Both the position numbers and the translations under genes were made by a program. Under the pieces are notes generated by a model. That model ran no database searches. It was not told the DNA's origin and saw only the letters and a list, made by a program, of their open reading frames with translations. A DNA stretch of 64,000 bases from Escherichia coli (lineage in GTDB: Bacteria; Pseudomonadota; Gammaproteobacteria; Enterobacterales; Enterobacteriaceae), in NCBI RefSeq assembly GCF_030013595.1, contig NZ_CP122768.1, one strand, 5' to 3'. Position 1 is the first letter of the stretch, and each line of letters opens with the position of its first letter. Below, piece after piece: positions 16,712 through 54,977 of the stretch.

Positions 16712-17077
16712 GTCGACAGGGAGTCAGACAACGAAGTGAACATCAGGATGATGACACTTCTGAAGGACACACCAGGATGGTGTTTCAGGGAAAGGCTTCT
16801 GGATGAAGCGAAGAGGATGACGCAGGACGCGTTAAAGGACACCTCCAGGATGGAGAATGAGAACCGGTCAGGATGATTCGGTGGGTCAGGAAGGCCAGGG
16901 ACACTTCAGGATGAAGTATCACATCGGGGTGGTGTGAGCAGGAAGCAATAGTTCAGGATGAACGATTGGCCGCAAGGCCAGAGGAAAAGTTGTCAAGGAT
17001 GAGCAGGGAGCAACAAAAGTAGCTGGAATGCTGCGAAACGAACCGGGAGCACTGTGAATACAGTGCTCCCTTTTTTT
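16712..17077 (+). ncRNA. csrB: CsrB small RNA (CsrA-sequestering sRNA)
   Basis: Begins GTCGACAGGGAGTCAGACAACGAAG; more than a dozen CAGGATG/AGGA motifs spaced through ~360 nt; ends in a GC hairpin (17045-17070) plus T7 run; located between syd and yqcC. Confidence 0.85.
17045..17077 (+). terminator. Rho-independent terminator of csrB
   Basis: gggagcactg-tgaata-cagtgctccc stem-loop followed by ttttttt. Confidence 0.8.
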
Positions 17078-17122
17078 ATTCCTGCTATCCTTCGCGGCAG
17101 TTTTTCTTATTGAGGTTGCTTT

Positions 17123-20489: not shown

Positions 20490-21830
20490 ATGACGACACA
20501 ATCCAGTCCTGTTATTACTGATATGAAAGTCATTCCGGTGGCCGGGCACGATAGCATGTTGCTTAATATTGGTGGGGCGCATAACGCATATTTCACTCGC
20601 AATATTGTGGTACTCACCGATAACGCCGGGCATACCGGCATTGGTGAAGCGCCAGGCGGAGAGGTGATTTATCAGACACTGGTCGATGCTATTCCGATGG
20701 TGTTGGGCCAGGAAGTTGCGCGCCTGAATAAAGTGGTTCAGCAGGTGCATAAAGGTAATCAGGCAGCCGATTTTGATACCTTCGGCAAAGGTGCCTGGAC
20801 TTTTGAATTGCGCGTTAATGCCGTGGCGGCGCTGGAAGCCGCCTTGCTTGACCTGCTAGGTAAGGCGCTGAATGTTCCGGTCTGCGAACTGTTGGGGCCA
20901 GGCAAGCAACGCGAGGCTATTACCGTCCTCGGTTATCTGTTTTATATCGGTGATCGGACCAAAACCGATCTTCCTTATCTGGAAAATACGCCGGGCAACC
21001 ATGAGTGGTATCAATTGCGGCATCAGAAAGCGATGAACAGCGACGCCGTTGTGCGTCTGGCGGAAGCCTCACAGGATCGCTATGGCTTTAAAGATTTCAA
21101 ACTTAAGGGCGGCGTGTTACCTGGCGAGCAAGAAATCGACACTGTTCGTGCATTGAAGAAACGCTTCCCGGATGCGCGGATTACCGTTGATCCCAACGGT
21201 GCATGGCTACTTGATGAAGCCATTTCTCTGTGCAAAGGGCTGAATGATGTTCTTACCTATGCCGAAGATCCATGCGGAGCAGAACAGGGGTTCTCCGGAC
21301 GTGAAGTGATGGCGGAGTTTCGGCGGGCGACCGGCTTGCCCGTCGCGACTAATATGATCGCCACCAACTGGCGCGAAATGGGCCATGCGGTGATGCTCAA
21401 TGCGGTAGATATTCCACTTGCCGATCCGCACTTCTGGACGCTTTCCGGTGCAGTCCGCGTGGCGCAGCTTTGCGACGACTGGGGGCTGACCTGGGGCTGC
21501 CATTCCAACAACCATTTCGATATCTCTCTGGCGATGTTTACCCATGTGGGCGCGGCGGCACCGGGTAATCCTACCGCTATCGATACCCACTGGATTTGGC
21601 AGGAGGGCGATTGTCGCCTGACCCAAAATCCGCTGGAGATTAAAAACGGAAAAATTGCCGTTCCTGATGCGCCCGGTCTGGGCGTGGAACTGGACTGGGA
21701 ACAGGTACAAAAGGCACATGAGGCCTATAAACGTCTGCCTGGCGGTGCGCGTAACGACGCGGGCCCGATGCAGTACCTGATCCCCGGCTGGACCTTTGAC
21801 CGTAAACGTCCCGTTTTCGGCCGTCATTGA
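20490..21830 (+). CDS. gudX: Glucarate dehydratase-related protein (enolase superfamily)
   Basis: 446-aa ORF, paralogous to the following gene. Confidence 0.9.
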
Positions 21831-21850: not shown

Positions 21851-23191
21851 ATGAGTTCTCAATTTACGACGCCTGTTGTTACTGAAATGCAGGTCATCCC
21901 GGTGGCGGGCCATGACAGTATGCTGATGAATCTGAGTGGTGCACACGCACCGTTCTTCACGCGTAATATTGTGATTATCAAAGATAATTCTGGTCACACT
22001 GGCGTAGGGGAAATTCCCGGCGGCGAGAAAATCCGTAAAACGCTGGAAGATGCGATTCCGCTGGTGGTGGGTAAAACGCTGGGTGAATACAAAAACGTTC
22101 TGACGCTGGTGCGTAATACATTTGCCGATCGTGATGCCGGTGGGCGCGGTTTGCAGACATTTGATTTGCGTACCACTATTCATGTAGTTACCGGGATAGA
22201 AGCGGCAATGCTGGATCTGCTGGGGCAGCATCTGGGGGTTAACGTGGCATCGCTGCTGGGCGATGGTCAACAGCGTAGCGAAGTCGAAATGCTCGGTTAT
22301 CTGTTCTTCGTCGGTAATCGCAAAGCCACACCGCTGCCGTATCAAAGCCAGCCGGATGATAAATGTGACTGGTATCGCCTGCGTCACGAAGAAGCGATGA
22401 CGCCGGATGCGGTGGTGCGCCTGGCGGAAGCGGCATATGAAAAATATGGCTTCAACGATTTCAAACTGAAGGGCGGTGTACTGGCCGGGGAAGAAGAAGC
22501 CGAATCTATTGTGGCACTGGCGCAACGCTTCCCACAGGCGCGTATTACCCTCGATCCTAACGGTGCCTGGTCGCTGAACGAAGCGATTAAAATCGGTAAA
22601 TACCTGAAAGGTTCGCTGGCTTATGCAGAAGATCCGTGTGGTGCGGAGCAAGGTTTCTCCGGGCGTGAAGTGATGGCAGAGTTCCGTCGCGCGACTGGCC
22701 TGCCGACCGCAACCAATATGATCGCCACCGACTGGCGGCAGATGGGCCATACGCTCTCGTTACAATCCGTTGATATCCCGCTGGCGGATCCGCATTTCTG
22801 GACGATGCAAGGTTCGGTACGTGTGGCGCAAATGTGCCATGAATTTGGCCTGACCTGGGGTTCACACTCTAACAACCACTTCGATATTTCCCTGGCGATG
22901 TTTACCCATGTAGCCGCTGCTGCACCGGGTAAAATTACTGCTATTGATACGCACTGGATCTGGCAGGAAGGCAATCAGCGTCTGACCAAAGAACCGTTTG
23001 AGATCAAAGGCGGGCTGGTACAGGTGCCGCAAAAACCAGGATTGGGCGTAGAAATCGATATGGATCAGGTGATGAAAGCCCACGAGCTGTATCAGAAACA
23101 TGGGCTTGGTGCGCGTGACGATGCGATGGGAATGCAGTACCTGATTCCTGGCTGGACGTTTGATAACAAGCGCCCGTGCATGGTGCGTTAA
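21851..23191 (+). CDS. gudD: D-glucarate dehydratase
   Basis: ORF 21827..23191; likely start at [20 protein letters not shown] (ATG 21851) giving 446 aa. Confidence 0.9.
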
Positions 23192-23203
23192 GACAGAAAA
23201 CCA

Positions 23204-23228
23204 AAACCGGCTCTTTCAGGAGCCGGTT
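23204..23228 (+). terminator. Hairpin downstream of gudD (candidate terminator, weak U-tract)
   Basis: aaaccggctc-tttcag-gagccggttt perfect 10-bp stem. Confidence 0.4.
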
Positions 23229-23265
23229 TGAGATTACTGACGAAGTGGCTTACGGGGACGGTTTT

Positions 23266-23366
23266 CCCCTCGCCCTTTCAAGGAGAGGACCGGGGTGAGG
23301 GTAATCATTCGCACTTGCGTTGGCCTGTTCCCCTCACCCTAACCCTCTCCCCGGAGGGGCGAGGGG
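23266..23366. repeat. GC-rich intergenic inverted-repeat element (two inverted ~36-bp units; boxC-like repeat class, family assignment uncertain)
   Basis: cccctcgccc...ggagagg...ggggtgaggg and its inverse cccctcaccc...cctctcc...gggcgagggg. Confidence 0.4.
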
Positions 23367-23430
23367 ACTGTCTGTGCTGCTCCCAGCATTGGCATTGGAC
23401 GGAACCTATTTTGACTCGACAAAACGTCCA

Positions 23431-26187
23431 TTACCCGAGAATTTTGCTGGCTTCGCGCGCTACATTATCCATCTCGTCCAACAGTTCCAGCAGCTCCGGC
23501 TCCAAATCTTCTTCTTTAGTACCGCTACGTAGCTGTTGTTCGATCAGCTGGCAGAGATTCTTCATACGCGGCACACCGCTATAGCCGCAACTGCCATGCA
23601 GTTTATGAATCAAATCAACCAGGCCTTCCGGGTTTTCTCCAACCAGCTGTTCCTCAACTTTGTTGCGAACTTCAGGCAGGAAATCGAGTAACATTTGCAG
23701 CATATCGCGCGCTAAATCGGTTTTTCCTGCTGCCTGGCGTAGTGCCAGTTGCCAGTCGAGGGTCGCATTCGGGTTCACCACAATTTCGTTGACTTCGGGC
23801 GTCACGACGCGAGACGAAATACCGCTGCCAGGCTTGTAGCGCAACAACAAATTATGCAATCGCTCTTCTTCAATCGGTTTCGCCAGATAATCGCTCATCC
23901 CTGCGCCAAGCAGCTTCTCTTTTTGCCCGGCCATTGCATGCGCCGTTACCGCGATAACTGGCGTTTGTTGCTGATGGGGGAGCTGGTGGATGAGTTCGCA
24001 GGCCCGAATGCCGTCCATGTCCGGCATTTGAATATCCATTAAGATCAAATCGAACGGCATCTGTTTCGCCCGTTCAACCGCCTGATGCCCGCTATCGCAA
24101 AGTTCCACATGTTGCACCATATCTTCCAGCAATGCGCCGATAAGTTTCAGGTTAGCGGGGTTGTCATCAACCGCCATGACTGTCATTGCCAGCTTACTTT
24201 CATCGGTTACAGGCAAAAGCGTGTTTTGTTTGTGATGACAAAATTCCGTCAGGGCAGGTAACAGGCGCGTAGGTGTTAATGGTTTCAGCAGACACGCGCC
24301 GATACCATCTTGCTTAAGTTTTTCAGCATTGACTTGTGCATGGCAAGGAAGTGCCAGCATCAGAAAATCGGTCATCGATACCGCTTTCGCTAATCGCTCA
24401 TGTTGCATTGTTAGCGGCTCGCGGAAGGTCACCGCAATGCCTAATAACATCATGTCGTAATGCGCGGGAGGCAGCGCGGAGAACGTTGGGCTATAAACCA
24501 CTTCCAGCGGCGTTTCACTTAAAATATCCAGCGTGCATTGCGCTGCTGCGGAGTTTGGTTCGACATAGGCCAGGCGCTTGCCGGCGAGGCACTGGGTGGA
24601 TGGCCCTTCGATAATAATGTTCGGATTCAGATCGAGATTAATGTGGAACCAGAAAGTTGAACCGCGATTCGGCTGGCTATGGAACGAAATATCGCCGCCC
24701 ATTTCATTAACCAGTTTTTGTGTAATCACCAGCCCCAGCCCGGTGCCACCATGACGGCGGGAAATACTGGCATCAGCCTGTCGGAAGGCCTGGAATAAGC
24801 GCGATTGATCGCGTTCAGGAATACCAATGCCGGTATCCCGAATCTGCACTTCAATCTGCACTTTGGTATTACTCAGCGCACGTTTTTCTACCAGAATATC
24901 AATGTTGCCATTCTCGGTGAATTTAATTGCATTCCCCACCAGGTTAGTGATGATTTGCTGTAATCGTAGTGGGTCGCCGATAACGTTATCAGGCACGTCG
25001 CTCTTAATATTGAGCGTCAGTTCCAGCCCTTTATCGTGAGAAGAATGTGCCAGCAGGGTAACGACTTCATCCAGCGTGCTGCGTAGTGGGAATGGAATAC
25101 TTTCCAGAATCAGCTTACCTGCTTCCAGTTTCGAGAAGTCGAGAACATCATTAATAATTGCCAGCAAATTATTTGCCGAACGTTCAATCGTATTCAGGTG
25201 ATCGCGCTGCGTTGGTGTTAATTCTGTTTTCAGCGTCAGGCGGGTAAAGCCAATAACACCATTCAGTGGTGTACGCAGCTCGTGTGACATATTTGCAAGA
25301 AACTCGGATTTAATACGCGCCGCTTCCTGGGCGCGCTTTTTCGCCAGATCCAACTCAACGTTCTGAATTTCCATCTGCTCCAGCGTTTCACGCAGATCGG
25401 ACGTCGCCTGGTCGATATTGTGCTGCATCTCTTCGTGATAAGCAGCCAGCGACATTGCCATCGAGTTGATACCGTTTTTCAGCATATCCAGCTCGCCGAG
25501 CATAAATCCTTCCACACGGCTGTCGAGTTGCCCGCGACGGATGCGGTCGACGGTATTCACCATATTGCGAATCGGACCGGTTACATCGCGCATTAAGCGC
25601 CAGCCAAAAATAAGCGCAATACCGATACAAAACAGCATCATCACGCTGGAAATAAAGATCTCTTTATATTGCTGCAAGCGAACCGATTTAAGATCCAGCT
25701 CAAGCGCAATATATCCCAACATATTTTGACTATTTTTGGCATCGCTACTGGGCGATTCGTCGGGGGAGTAACTCTCAGAAATAATCGGCGTGCGGAGGAT
25801 CATAATATCGCCGTCACGAGTGACAGTGAGCTGGCGAGGAAACGGCACGTTGCTGCCGAGCTGCATTGATGAGGGATCAAGATGAAAATTGGAGGTGACA
25901 AAGAGTCGGTTATTTTCATCATAAACCGAAATCGCGCGAACAATATCGGAATGGCGACGATGCAGTACGCTTATTAACTGACCGATAGATTCGCGATTTT
26001 GCAGGCTCATGCCATATTCAGTAGAAACTGCAAGCGGCTCAATAATGCTGGCACCGGCATCTTCCAGTTGACGCTGCAAGTCGTTATAGCGATGCACAAC
26101 GAAAAAGATACTCAGCAATAAACCAATAAGGACGGTCGGTGCCAGGATCAGAATCATCATGCGTGCGCGCAGGCTGTAGTTGGTCAT
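23431..26187 (-). CDS. barA: Hybrid sensor histidine kinase BarA
   Basis: 918-aa ORF recognised as BarA. Confidence 0.95.
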
Positions 26188-45746: not shown

Positions 45747-45790
45747 CGTGCAGCCGGATGATCCTGCCTACGGTTCTGGGCTGGGGACTT

Positions 45791-45857
45791 GTAAGCCTGA
45801 TAAGACGCGTCAAGCGTCGCATCAGGCGCTGAATGTCGGATGTGGCGTGCAGCCTAC
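45791..45857. repeat. REP/BIME elements
   Basis: gcctgataagacgcgtcaagcgtcgcatcaggc plus a second REP-like unit gtcggatgtggcgtgcagcctac. Confidence 0.6.
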
Positions 45858-52277: not shown

Positions 52278-52295
52278 CCATCAGCCCGGTCTTGT

Positions 52296-52335
52296 AGGCC
52301 TGATAAGACGCGTGAGCGTCGCATCAGGCAAGGCA
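52296..52335. repeat. REP element between cysI and cysH
   Basis: gtaggcctgataagacgcgtgagcgtcgcatcaggcaagg palindromic REP. Confidence 0.6.
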
Positions 52336-53140: not shown

Positions 53141-53349
53141 TGCGAGCAGCATTCCTGATTTTAAACGTGAACGCCGCTGGAAGAATTATCAGGTATAGAA
53201 TGGCGTTGGGTGCTTGAGGCTGTCTGGCGTTAAGCATTCGCGAGGTTCCAGATGGACAAAAGCCCCAGGCGATATTTCTATCAACCTGAGGCCAGCGTTC
53301 GAACCCAAACAATTCGAATGTTAGTCTCTTCTTTGCAGGGAGGCAAGGC

Positions 53350-53502
53350 ATGCTGACAAAATATGCCCTTGTGGCAATCATAGTGCTGTGTTTTACAGTA
53401 CTGGGATTCACGCTGATGGTAGGCGACTCGTTGTGTGAGTTGAGTATCAGAGAACGTGGTATGGAGTTTAAGGCAGTTCTCGCTTACGAATCGAAGAAGT
53501 AG
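53350..53502 (+). CDS. Hok/Gef-family type I toxin (50 aa), cysH-proximal hok locus
   Basis: [50 protein letters not shown]: single TM helix plus conserved SLCE...R....E..A...YESKK Hok signature; below the 60-aa cutoff of the ORF track; 34-codon upstream ORF (53252-53356) ends ATGcTGA over its start (mok-like). Confidence 0.6.
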
Positions 53503-53523
53503 CCACCACGCGGGGGTAAAACC

Positions 53524-54861
53524 CATAAGCGCTAACTTAAGGGTTGAACCATCTGAAGAATGCGACGCCTCGGTGCCTCGTTAAGACGATGCCTCGCGTT
53601 CTTCAATTGCGTTTTGTAGGCTGTCAGGGATACTGTCCCACGAATGGCCACCTGTAAGCTCCAGATGACCATTTTTGTTATTCTCCACAACGAGTTAGTT
53701 CTTCTTTTCGGATCCGGCACTTCTGGGGGGAAATCCAGCGATGGCTGGATTATGTCGTCAATTAAAAATGCGGCGAGTAGATTAGCAAATATCCACGCTT
53801 TCGCGAGTTCAGGTTCCTTTGCACGCAAAGCATCCAGGTGCAGCAAACTTTTGAGCCGCTTAAAAGCCAGTTCAATTTGCCATCGCAGACGGTAACAATC
53901 AGCCACTTGCTCTGCTGAATATTCATCTTCCGGTAATGATGTTAGCAATAGCACATGGCCCGCTGCTTCCAGCGTTTCCGCCTGAACTACTCGTCCTTTT
54001 CGACGATTCTCGCTGAGCAGTCGGGTTTTACTGATTAATGCTTTTTCGGGAGGAAGTGATACGGCAATGAGACGTGCCGGAAAGGGAGCTCCGGCTTTTT
54101 TATTACCTGAATTGCCTATCATTACAGTGGTTTCACCGTTCTTACCGCAATCCAGCCCGCGCAGAAAACCCATCATGTCAAAGCGCATTCCTTCTGCAGT
54201 TAACCAGCGCAATCCTCGCCAGTGAACCCGGACGATATAATCAGCTTCTCCAAAAGCAAGTGAGCGGATACATTCGGGACGCGAACCGAATCCCCGGTCA
54301 GCAATGCGTATCTCGTCTGCCGTTTGCGCAAATCGGTCCAGCCGTTCAGCGTCTCTGCTGTCGGTTAGCTCAAAATCAGTGAACTGACAGGTATGAGGAT
54401 CATATCCCATATGTAGTCGCCATTCAGCGCTGCCGCCCCCGGGCGCACTGATTGCTGTTCCATCGACAAGACGCAATCTCTTTCCGCTTGTACAACCCGT
54501 AACTGCGGCGCGTACAGCAAGTGTTTGTGCGGCAAGTATGCCAAACCAGTCGGCGGCATTCCGCAGCCGCTTCAGGAGAGCCACGTCAGATAATGTTGCA
54601 ACGTCATGGAGCTGAGCCCATGCAGTGACTTCACGTAATGACATCCCCCCGGGGCCGTAAGCCAGCCCCAGACGTAGCAGAGTTGCAGCATCACGAATTT
54701 CGCGGCGGCGGGTTAGAGCCCCGGCATTACGTGCCGAAGTATCCAGTTCTTCGGGCTTACCAATATGGGCCAGAATTGCTGACCAGTTATCGTGAGAGTA
54801 ATTCATCGGCACGTTAAATCATATCAGGCGTAATACCACAACCCTTAAGTTAGCGCTTATG
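53524..54861 (-). mobile_element. IS186 (IS4 family) insertion sequence, about 1.34 kb
   Basis: Terminal inverted repeats CATAAGCGCTAACTTAAGGGTTG at 53524-53546 and 54839-54861; flanked by direct repeats GGGTAAAACC; single transposase ORF. Confidence 0.85.
53532..54644 (-). CDS. insL: IS186 transposase (DDE, IS4 family)
   Basis: ORF 53532..54812 (426 aa); start at MSLREVTAWAQLHD would give the 370-aa form I recall for K-12 InsL; the longer in-frame extension may or may not be translated. Confidence 0.8.
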   Translation of the reverse strand: MSLREVTAWAQLHDVATLSDVALLKRLRNAADWFGILAAQTLAVRAAVTGCTSGKRLRLVDGTAISAPGGGSAEWRLHMGYDPHTCQFTDFELTDSRDAERLDRFAQTADEIRIADRGFGSRPECIRSLAFGEADYIVRVHWRGLRWLTAEGMRFDMMGFLRGLDCGKNGETTVMIGNSGNKKAGAPFPARLIAVSLPPEKALISKTRLLSENRRKGRVVQAETLEAAGHVLLLTSLPEDEYSAEQVADCYRLRWQIELAFKRLKSLLHLDALRAKEPELAKAWIFANLLAAFLIDDIIQPSLDFPPEVPDPKRRTNSLWRITKMVIWSLQVAIRGTVSLTAYKTQLKNARHRLNEAPRRRILQMVQPLS

Positions 54862-54977
54862 GGGTAAAACCCCGCGTATTGAATTGTTAAAGTTTGGCCT
54901 CCTGCACCCCTTTTTTATACTCTGTTTCTGGTGGCATTGATTTCCTGCAGGCAAGGGAGTAATCATTTTCAAACCCA

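Follow-up and report, generated by a model that had tools for sequence, protein, structure and literature searches.

Potential intrastrand triplex (PIT) elements reportedly go back to a 2000 study by Maher et al. The motif described as TMECO in Escherichia coli is the same element, which had earlier been named BoxC (in the 1990s) and PIT (in 2000) (Holder et al. 2015, PMC4666352). Its consensus, 5'-CCCTCNCCC-N3-6-GGGNGAGGG-N3-GGGNGAGGG-3', consists of three blocks separated by two loops, the second of which defines the subtypes (TTA in type A and CCG in type B), and copies with one mismatched position are designated “mm” (PMC4666352). For the K-12 strain, 23 TMECO copies have been published, and all five K-12 pairs combine a type A and a type B unit on opposite strands (PMC4666352). 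The length of BoxC has been published as 56 bp, with an HMM of 50 bp, in a survey of stem-loops from 2008 (PMC2267715). Holder et al. catalogued 63 loci, reported no association of TMECO with mobile elements and observed more variability between strains at TMECO loci than at control loci; at paired sites, parts of both units had been lost and a stem-loop was left behind, which they termed the “palindrome effect” (PMC4666352). By CD and NMR, single-stranded oligonucleotides of types A and B were reported to adopt a purine-motif intrastrand triplex in vitro (Tm ~74 °C for the type A “mm” class), and NMR of DNA oligonucleotides favoured the triplex over a G-quadruplex (G4), but double-stranded TMECO gave duplex signals only, and footprinting with DMS in vivo lent no support to a stable triplex (PMC4666352). 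Earlier tests of PIT elements, cited in the same paper, showed neither promoter nor terminator activity, no effect on conjugation and no blocking of polymerase in vivo. No function has been demonstrated for the family, and apart from PMC4666352 and the stem-loop survey of 2008 (PMC2267715), our search of the literature found no later functional work on BoxC/PIT/TMECO.

The locus described here lies in a 64-kb stretch of E. coli DNA (hereafter the window, with positions counted from its first letter), between gudD, coding for glucarate dehydratase (21851..23191, + strand), and the convergent barA, coding for a sensor histidine kinase (23431..26187, - strand). Both genes were assigned by NCBIfam equivalog profiles (TIGR03247 with 899 bits for gudD; NF008318 with 1624 bits for barA, over profile positions 1-917 of 920). 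The coordinates of gudD were transferred from the RefSeq annotation of strain NRZ14408, in which the locus is identical, and those of both genes are the same in that annotation. An initial interpretation made from the letters of the DNA, which we call the sequence-only reading, had noted an inverted pair of GC-rich units between convergent gudD and barA, and this placement is borne out by the two profile matches and by the annotation. The spacer measures 239 bp from stop codon to stop codon (23192-23430), and the pair is strictly intergenic, lying between the gudD stop (23191) and the barA stop (23431). In the PGAP annotation of the spacer there is no feature at the pair.

A repeat search found two inverted arms of 40 nt each (23265-23304 and 23328-23367), which are 78% complementary, are separated by 23 nt and each open with a 13-nt direct repeat, TTCCCCTC(G/A)CCCT. 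The two inverted GC-rich units are thus present, but the sequence-only reading went too far in describing each as the inverse of the other: they are imperfect inverses, they belong to two subtypes with different second loops (CCG and TTA), and the unit on the + strand carries two G>A changes. That unit (23267..23302, + strand) reads CCCTCGCCC TTTCA aGGAGAGGa CCG GGGTGAGGG T and is a degenerate type B unit, 34/36 identical to K-12 TMECO #10, which misses the strict consensus by the two G>A changes at both ends of its middle block (aGGAGAGGa). With two G-G-C triplets lost, it is expected from its sequence to be weaker as a triplex. The other unit (23330..23365, - strand) reads CCCTCGCCC CTCCG GGGAGAGGG TTA GGGTGAGGG G and is a type A “mm” unit, identical letter for letter to K-12 TMECO #23, a copy of that same class. 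It matches the strict consensus exactly (23331-23365, - strand), which none of 100 shuffles does. A canonical G-quadruplex motif, GGGGAGAGGGTTAGGGTGAGGGG, lies within it (23330..23352, - strand, which is the barA-sense strand), the sole such motif that a regular-expression scan found in the spacer. The immediate flanks of the type A unit (5' GCACnGACAGT, 3' AACAGGCC) recur at solo copies in K-12, one of which lies beside fabI, and similarity that extends beyond the 36-nt core in this way agrees with the 50-56-bp BoxC unit of the 2008 stem-loop survey. Between the two units is a central spacer of 27 nt (23303..23329), AATCATTCGCACTTGCGTTGGCCTGTT, which forms the loop of the long hairpin and is conserved among paired BoxC loci. 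Together, the type B unit, the central spacer and the inverted type A unit make up a composite of 123 bp (23255..23377), which is the full extent of the similarity to paired BoxC loci elsewhere.

The block pattern is far from chance. It occurs in full once in the 64-kb window and in none of 100 shuffles, and five of the six CCCTCNCCC 9-mers of the window fall within this 100 bp, the expectation for the whole window being 1.08. Given the exact consensus match, the identity to copy #23 and the 34 of 36 positions shared with copy #10, the feature between gudD and barA is an inverted BoxC (PIT/TMECO) pair in its ordinary known form. The sequence-only reading had proposed a “boxC-like” repeat without confidence in the family; with one unit matching the published consensus exactly, this assignment can now be made confidently. 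It had also proposed counting copies in the genome, with a single copy as the refutation, and the 36-nt unit proves to be multicopy: of 5426 complete E. coli genomes, 5425 contain it (median 19 places each, range 2-33). These amount to 93,227 places, 93,160 chromosomal and 67 on plasmids. With the whole spacer as the query, strain NRZ14408, which is 100% identical at the locus, has 21 places. Considering both queries together, the median is ~19-21 and the range 2-36 places per genome, with 63-67 of ~93,000-101,000 places on plasmids. In the portion searched of the Holder et al. supplement, which lists coordinates only, there is no match for barA, gudD or the distinctive unit with a GCG loop described below.

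The composite as a whole also recurs at other E. coli loci, and is itself a dispersed repeat of ~123 bp. Its best non-allelic match by BLAST covers 23255-23377 (query positions 64-186; both units, the central spacer and short edges) at 87% identity and lies between ygfF and gcvP in K-12-like genomes. The window pair was aligned with four K-12 pairs (ygfF-gcvP, hrpB-mrcB, fepB-entC and alx-sstT), all of which have the same orientation as the window pair; in the remaining K-12 pair, lldD-trmL, the units are arranged the other way round (divergently). Conserved in the five-locus alignment are the central spacer, TTCGCACCnGTGCTGGCCTGTT, which is shortened only in hrpB-mrcB, and the edges, ACGGTTTTC ... 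GGGGACTG. The pattern TTCGCAC..G..GGCCTGTT in the central spacer is common to the window, ygfF-gcvP, fepB-entC and alx-sstT pairs. Compensatory covariation between the arms was looked for across these paralogous pairs and rejected for lack of consistency: at the variable block position, mismatches occur in two of the five. The possibility that the whole segment from ~23240 to 23412 forms one extended BoxC element was rejected as well, since its outer flanks score like shuffles against the K-12 flanks (z mostly <2), and the left flank (23240-23254) has no significant similarity to K-12 BoxC flanks beyond the immediate ~10 nt. Some of the type A copies in K-12 share a longer 5' flank, TGATGACAAAGT..AAAAGTGC, for which the similarity to the window is not significant.

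At the gudD-barA spacer itself, the complete E. coli genomes fall into three alleles. The most frequent by far is the K-12 type (5210 of 5426 genomes, 96%), a spacer of similar length and wholly different sequence, which contains a REP palindrome (GCCGGATG..CGCATCCGGC type). The REP consensus palindrome matches the K-12 spacer at 30/30 positions, and does not match the window spacer with as many as 8/30 substitutions tolerated. The BoxC-pair allele is present in 174 genomes (3.2%), of which 13 are at least 99% identical to the window, 22 lie at 95-99% and 139 at ~94.6%. The third allele, found in 15 genomes, lacks 70 nt (23277..23346), has a 170-bp spacer and retains the same allele-specific flanks as the pair allele. 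The flanking genes are 92-100% (mostly 94-100%) identical to those of K-12, and non-homology is confined to ~23240-23412. Of this replaced segment of ~170 bp, the BoxC composite accounts for 23255-23377 only; the outer 15 and 35 nt (TTACTGACGAAGTGGCTTACGGGG and TGCTCCCAGCATTGGCATTGGACGGAACC) occur nowhere else in the collection. The left of these (23240..23254) is missing from the K-12/REP allele in an alignment with K-12. The right one (23378..23412), which includes small hairpins right after the barA stop codon, occurs in 189 genomes, in one place each and at this locus only, and is unlike both the K-12 allele and the K-12 BoxC flanks. When GTDB species representatives were scanned with degenerate codons for the 3' end of gudD, the REP-type spacer also turned up in E. 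whittamii, Escherichia sp. E1V33, Escherichia sp. MOD1-EC7003 and strain E69. Its presence in four other Escherichia lineages indicates that the REP spacer is ancestral and the BoxC pair derived. A different gene comes after gudD at the loci inspected in Salmonella, Klebsiella, Kosakonia and Pseudescherichia, which are thus uninformative as to the ancestral spacer.

Taken as a whole, these results favour a reading to which we give a probability of about 0.88. Its demonstrated parts are the family identity, the copy number, the three alleles and the deletion derivative: the feature is a BoxC inverted pair, a dispersed composite within a segment of ~170 bp which, in a minority of E. coli lineages, has taken the place of the ancestral spacer with its REP. 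The pair is most likely a passive, structure-prone repeat without a dedicated function. At the RNA level, it would be transcribed as part of the barA 3' UTR and form a long hairpin of high stability. As DNA, it would be prone to point decay and to deletion by slippage or microhomology, owing to its internal repeats and its palindromy.

The variation seen at the locus is consistent with the last of these suggestions. In the commonest pair haplotype (CFSAN061768 type), the type B unit is intact and reads GGGAGAGGG GCG GGGTGAGGG, and the window haplotype and two others carry differing substitutions in this unit. The type A unit and the central spacer are invariant across the five haplotypes examined, which, together with the near-identical copies elsewhere, could reflect constraint or gene conversion instead of neutrality. 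The 70-nt deletion is bounded by CCCT microhomologies (23273-23276 and 23343-23346), and a simulated deletion of these 70 nt reproduces the sequence of the short allele in an alignment of four short alleles. The remnant, CCCCTC(G/A)CCC TCTCCCCGGA GGGGCGAGGGG, still forms a hairpin (-22 to -28 kcal/mol), so that the outcome is the one reported by Holder et al. for paired sites, namely a stem-loop left after partial loss of both units (PMC4666352). The haplotype-specific substitutions in the type B unit and the deletion allele in 15 genomes together point to a decaying, unstable locus. The cause of this instability is where an alternative proposed by Holder et al. has to be weighed (PMC4666352), namely that the units form an intrastrand, H-DNA-like triplex which stalls replication and makes the locus a hotspot of instability. 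The type A unit does match the triplex consensus exactly, its “mm” oligonucleotides form the triplex in vitro as mentioned above, and the polymorphism of the locus, where three alleles, point changes in one unit and the loss of 70 nt are seen, is what such a hotspot might look like. However, the published results for double-stranded TMECO and for in vivo footprinting speak against it, and the unit that keeps its triplex potential is the invariant one, the decaying unit being already off-consensus in the window haplotype. Moreover, microhomology inside a long palindrome suffices for the deletion, which hairpin-promoted slippage at the CCCT repeats would explain without any need for a triplex. 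We therefore regard a triplex as possible but unlikely to be the source of the instability, and consider the pair most likely a passive repeat, whose internal repeats and palindromy would account for it.

The position of the pair with respect to transcription was addressed with a consensus terminator scan, on which its placement in a 3' UTR is based. The sole terminator-like site in 23100-23520 is a GC-rich hairpin adjoining the gudD stop codon (23204..23229), which is terminator-like on the - strand (23229>23204), with the tail TGGTTTTCTG; its tail on the + strand, TTTGAGATT, is poor. The hairpin stands out from shuffled sequences (DNA fold z = -5.9 and -5.5) and is present in both major alleles, its stem being kept through paired changes from one haplotype to another (GGCTC/GAGCC vs GGCTTC/GAAGTC). 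Judging from these sequence features, it is the probable terminator of barA, and for gudD only a weak one. As the only good barA terminator lies beyond the pair, next to gudD, the pair is probably contained in a barA 3' UTR of ~230 nt, from the stop at 23431 to ~23200, and transcripts reading through from gudD could reach it as well. For the barA 3' region, folding predicts two small hairpins, followed by the long BoxC hairpin and then the terminator hairpin. The 123-nt pair folds at -75.6 kcal/mol as RNA of the + strand and at -68.5 kcal/mol as RNA of the - strand (z ~-6), with none of 200 shuffles as stable. Taken singly, the units show no unusual stability as Watson-Crick hairpins (DNA fold z from -1.0 to +0.5), and were rejected as exceptional hairpins in their own right, only the composite standing out against shuffles.

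A pair of this kind could have a function as RNA within the barA 3' UTR, where it would block 3'-to-5' exonucleases or set the stability of the mRNA and would have taken the place of REP, for which a role in stabilising mRNA is known. Both major alleles do put a structured repeat (REP or the BoxC pair) between the barA stop codon and the terminator hairpin, and the -68.5 kcal/mol fold belongs to the barA-sense strand and forms part of the structure predicted for the 3' UTR. On that strand the type A unit presents its G-rich, better-pairing sense, and the deletion allele keeps a stable hairpin. Against this, the type B arm decays without a compensatory change in the other arm, and the K-12 pairs do not keep their arms complementary at the variable block position. 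BoxC pairs are also found in intergenic regions of all kinds, the divergent fepB-entC region among them, and PIT elements had neither a terminator nor an RNA polymerase effect in earlier work (PMC4666352). On balance, we find a dedicated role in the 3' UTR rather improbable.

About equally improbable, in our view, is an alternative that takes the ~123-bp composite for a non-autonomous mobile element of the MITE kind, with the BoxC units as the terminal inverted repeats on which a recombinase would act. This would account for near-identical composites at unrelated loci in which the non-palindromic central spacer is conserved too, for the number of copies, which varies between genomes over the range given above, and for the derived state of the pair allele in comparison with other Escherichia lineages. 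We know of no transposase for the BoxC composite. Comparisons with paralogues, K-12 and other Escherichia showed neither a target-site duplication nor a clean empty site, and the change at this locus is a replacement and not a clean insertion: the ~170 bp of REP-bearing spacer are gone, and the composite is bordered by 15-35 nt of unrelated flanks. The very small share of plasmid-borne places is a further argument against mobility, as is the lack of association of TMECO with mobile elements in the study by Holder et al. (PMC4666352). A more speculative suggestion, which we hold to be a long shot, combines elements of these two alternatives: the spacer may record selection for a structured repeat in the barA 3' UTR which tunes the BarA/UvrY-CsrB cascade and whose part the BoxC pair would have taken over from REP, or else the composite may be a still-mobile MITE-like element moved by some recombinase.

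The terminator, REP and sRNA readings fail direct tests. A GC-rich inverted repeat between convergent genes, which forms very stable hairpins on both strands, might be taken for a bidirectional intrinsic terminator serving gudD and barA. This is very improbable for the present pair, which has no T-run after either arm and is not flagged by the terminator scan, while a separate conserved hairpin with a T-rich tail is available at 23204-23229 and PIT elements had no terminator activity in earlier experiments (PMC4666352). An identity of the feature as a REP/BIME element, as ERIC, as an sRNA gene or as a gene for a small protein can safely be dismissed: the same spacer carries REP in most E. coli and mechanical open reading frames do overlap the pair (e.g. 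23228-23584), but the window spacer has no REP-like sequence at the above threshold, the Rfam hits are sub-threshold hairpins of eukaryotic miRNA type (E 0.08-9), no promoter-like site was found near the pair in a scan of 23100-23520, and the overlapping frames start with TTG or GTG and run antisense into barA. The best of the Rfam hits, obtained with a permissive E-value over 22900-23700, was mir-423, with 22 bits against a gathering score of 71; such hits are generic GC-hairpin matches, and a known Rfam RNA family was rejected as none reached its gathering threshold. When the whole window was compared with Rfam, only CsrB and sok passed the threshold.

The family, its two subtypes, the inverted pairing, the intergenic multicopy distribution and the variability of the loci have already been published. 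What is added here is a strain-variable locus with its polarity (REP ancestral, pair derived), the frequencies of its alleles in 5426 genomes and a precisely delimited deletion between microhomologies. These additions confirm existing ideas without extending them, and carry little weight as a discovery. Their use lies more in the natural series of three alleles (REP, BoxC pair and deletion) that they reveal in one spacer, beside the gene of a global regulator, barA. This series could serve to test the effects of repeats on mRNA 3' ends and stability, as well as triplex formation versus palindromy as the cause of instability. If selection for a structured repeat were indeed at work, the choice of allele would tune the level of BarA and hence the BarA/UvrY-CsrB cascade. 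The locus also illustrates that genome annotation pipelines leave the BoxC family unannotated.

Among the systems with which the pair can be compared, Rho-independent terminators share the GC-rich stem-loop after convergent genes but possess the adjacent U-tract that the BoxC pair lacks. REP/BIME elements are, like the BoxC pair, short GC-rich palindromic intergenic repeats, and here they even occupy the same spacer upstream of the same terminator hairpin, although the sequences are unrelated. REPs have a dedicated RAYT transposase, documented binding of gyrase, IHF and Pol I, and a documented effect on mRNA stabilisation, and to our knowledge none of these features has been described for BoxC. 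ERIC/IRU and other MITE-like repeats, such as the Correia/NEMIS elements of Neisseria, resemble the pair in being imperfect palindromic composites of ~120-150 bp which are intergenic and dispersed. They are co-transcribed with their neighbours and give long RNA hairpins, as is predicted for the BoxC pair. The pair is unrelated to them in sequence and has neither a target-site duplication nor an enzyme known to mobilise it, and its arms are internally structured three-block units which are also found singly. The closest system is the BoxC/PIT/TMECO family of K-12 itself, from which the present locus differs as follows: the gudD-barA pair is not among the 23 K-12 copies, the locus being found in ~3.5% of complete genomes (174 with the pair and 15 with the deletion), and its type B unit departs from the strict consensus in the window haplotype. 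The units have the same three blocks (one C-rich, followed by two G-rich) and are intergenic and multicopy, the pair joins an inverted type A and type B unit with the conserved spacer and immediate flanks of the K-12 pairs, and, as at other BoxC/TMECO loci, the site is variable among strains and has a deletion derivative that keeps a hairpin.

The hairpin adjacent to gudD (23204-23229) retains its stem despite the differences between haplotypes, the changes being paired among the compared loci (L009, L023 and L036 included). In the CFSAN061768-type haplotype, the commonest one carrying the BoxC pair, stem and loop read GGCTTC ATAA GAAGTC. A second hairpin, which adjoins barA, is present in E. 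whittamii and in strain E69, and has decayed in K-12. The similarity of this barA-side hairpin to the gudD-side one of the CFSAN061768-type haplotype suggests that the two hairpins of the gudD-barA spacer have recombined in the past.

About 6 kb separate barA from the gene for the CsrB sRNA (16721-17080, + strand; Rfam RF00018, 382.9 bits), and this layout is the same in K-12. The neighbouring genes gudX and gudD are paralogues, which accounts for a 300-nt direct repeat (21002-21301 and 22366-22665, 69% identity, spacing 1364 nt). While the gudD-barA spacer is devoid of REPs, two repeats with 92% identity to each other, GG(A/T)CTTGTA(A/G)GCCTGATAAGACGCGT at 45785-45810 and 52288-52313, look by eye like REP-type palindromic repeats, and show that REPs are present elsewhere in the window.

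The CRISPR array at 36195-36749 comprises 9-10 copies of the repeat GAGTTCCCCGCGCCAGCGGGGATAAACCG with a 61-nt period. Within it, the repeat-spacer unit at 36384-36444 and the one that directly follows at 36445-36505 show 100% identity, which indicates that one spacer has been duplicated. An additional degenerate repeat is found after another 532 nt (37215-37245). Further along, a sok antitoxin RNA (53208-53365, + strand; Rfam RF01794, 112 bits) is directly adjoined by a pair of 39-nt inverted repeats, 90% complementary and 1292 nt apart. The region that these repeats delimit (53508-54877) is a candidate insertion sequence, as judged by its size and form.

Several K-12 type A copies of BoxC, namely those in the ygfF-gcvP, alx-sstT, fimH-gntP and fepB-entC intergenic regions, have in common about 35 nt of additional similarity on their 5' side, with the consensus GACTGATGACAAAGT..AAAAGTGCnCGGACAGT. 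Often, the upstream gene has a terminator-like hairpin directly before this extended flank. Comparison of the flanks did not reveal the extension at the type A copy of the window (23330-23365, - strand). Since the K-12 copies share this additional stretch, the BoxC repeated unit may exceed the 36-56 bp given in the literature. The published account also describes the motif as having no association with phages (PMC4666352), and it sits oddly with this statement that TMECO #3 and #4, both type B copies of K-12, lie within the annotated cryptic prophage CP4-6 (K-12 282000-289600).
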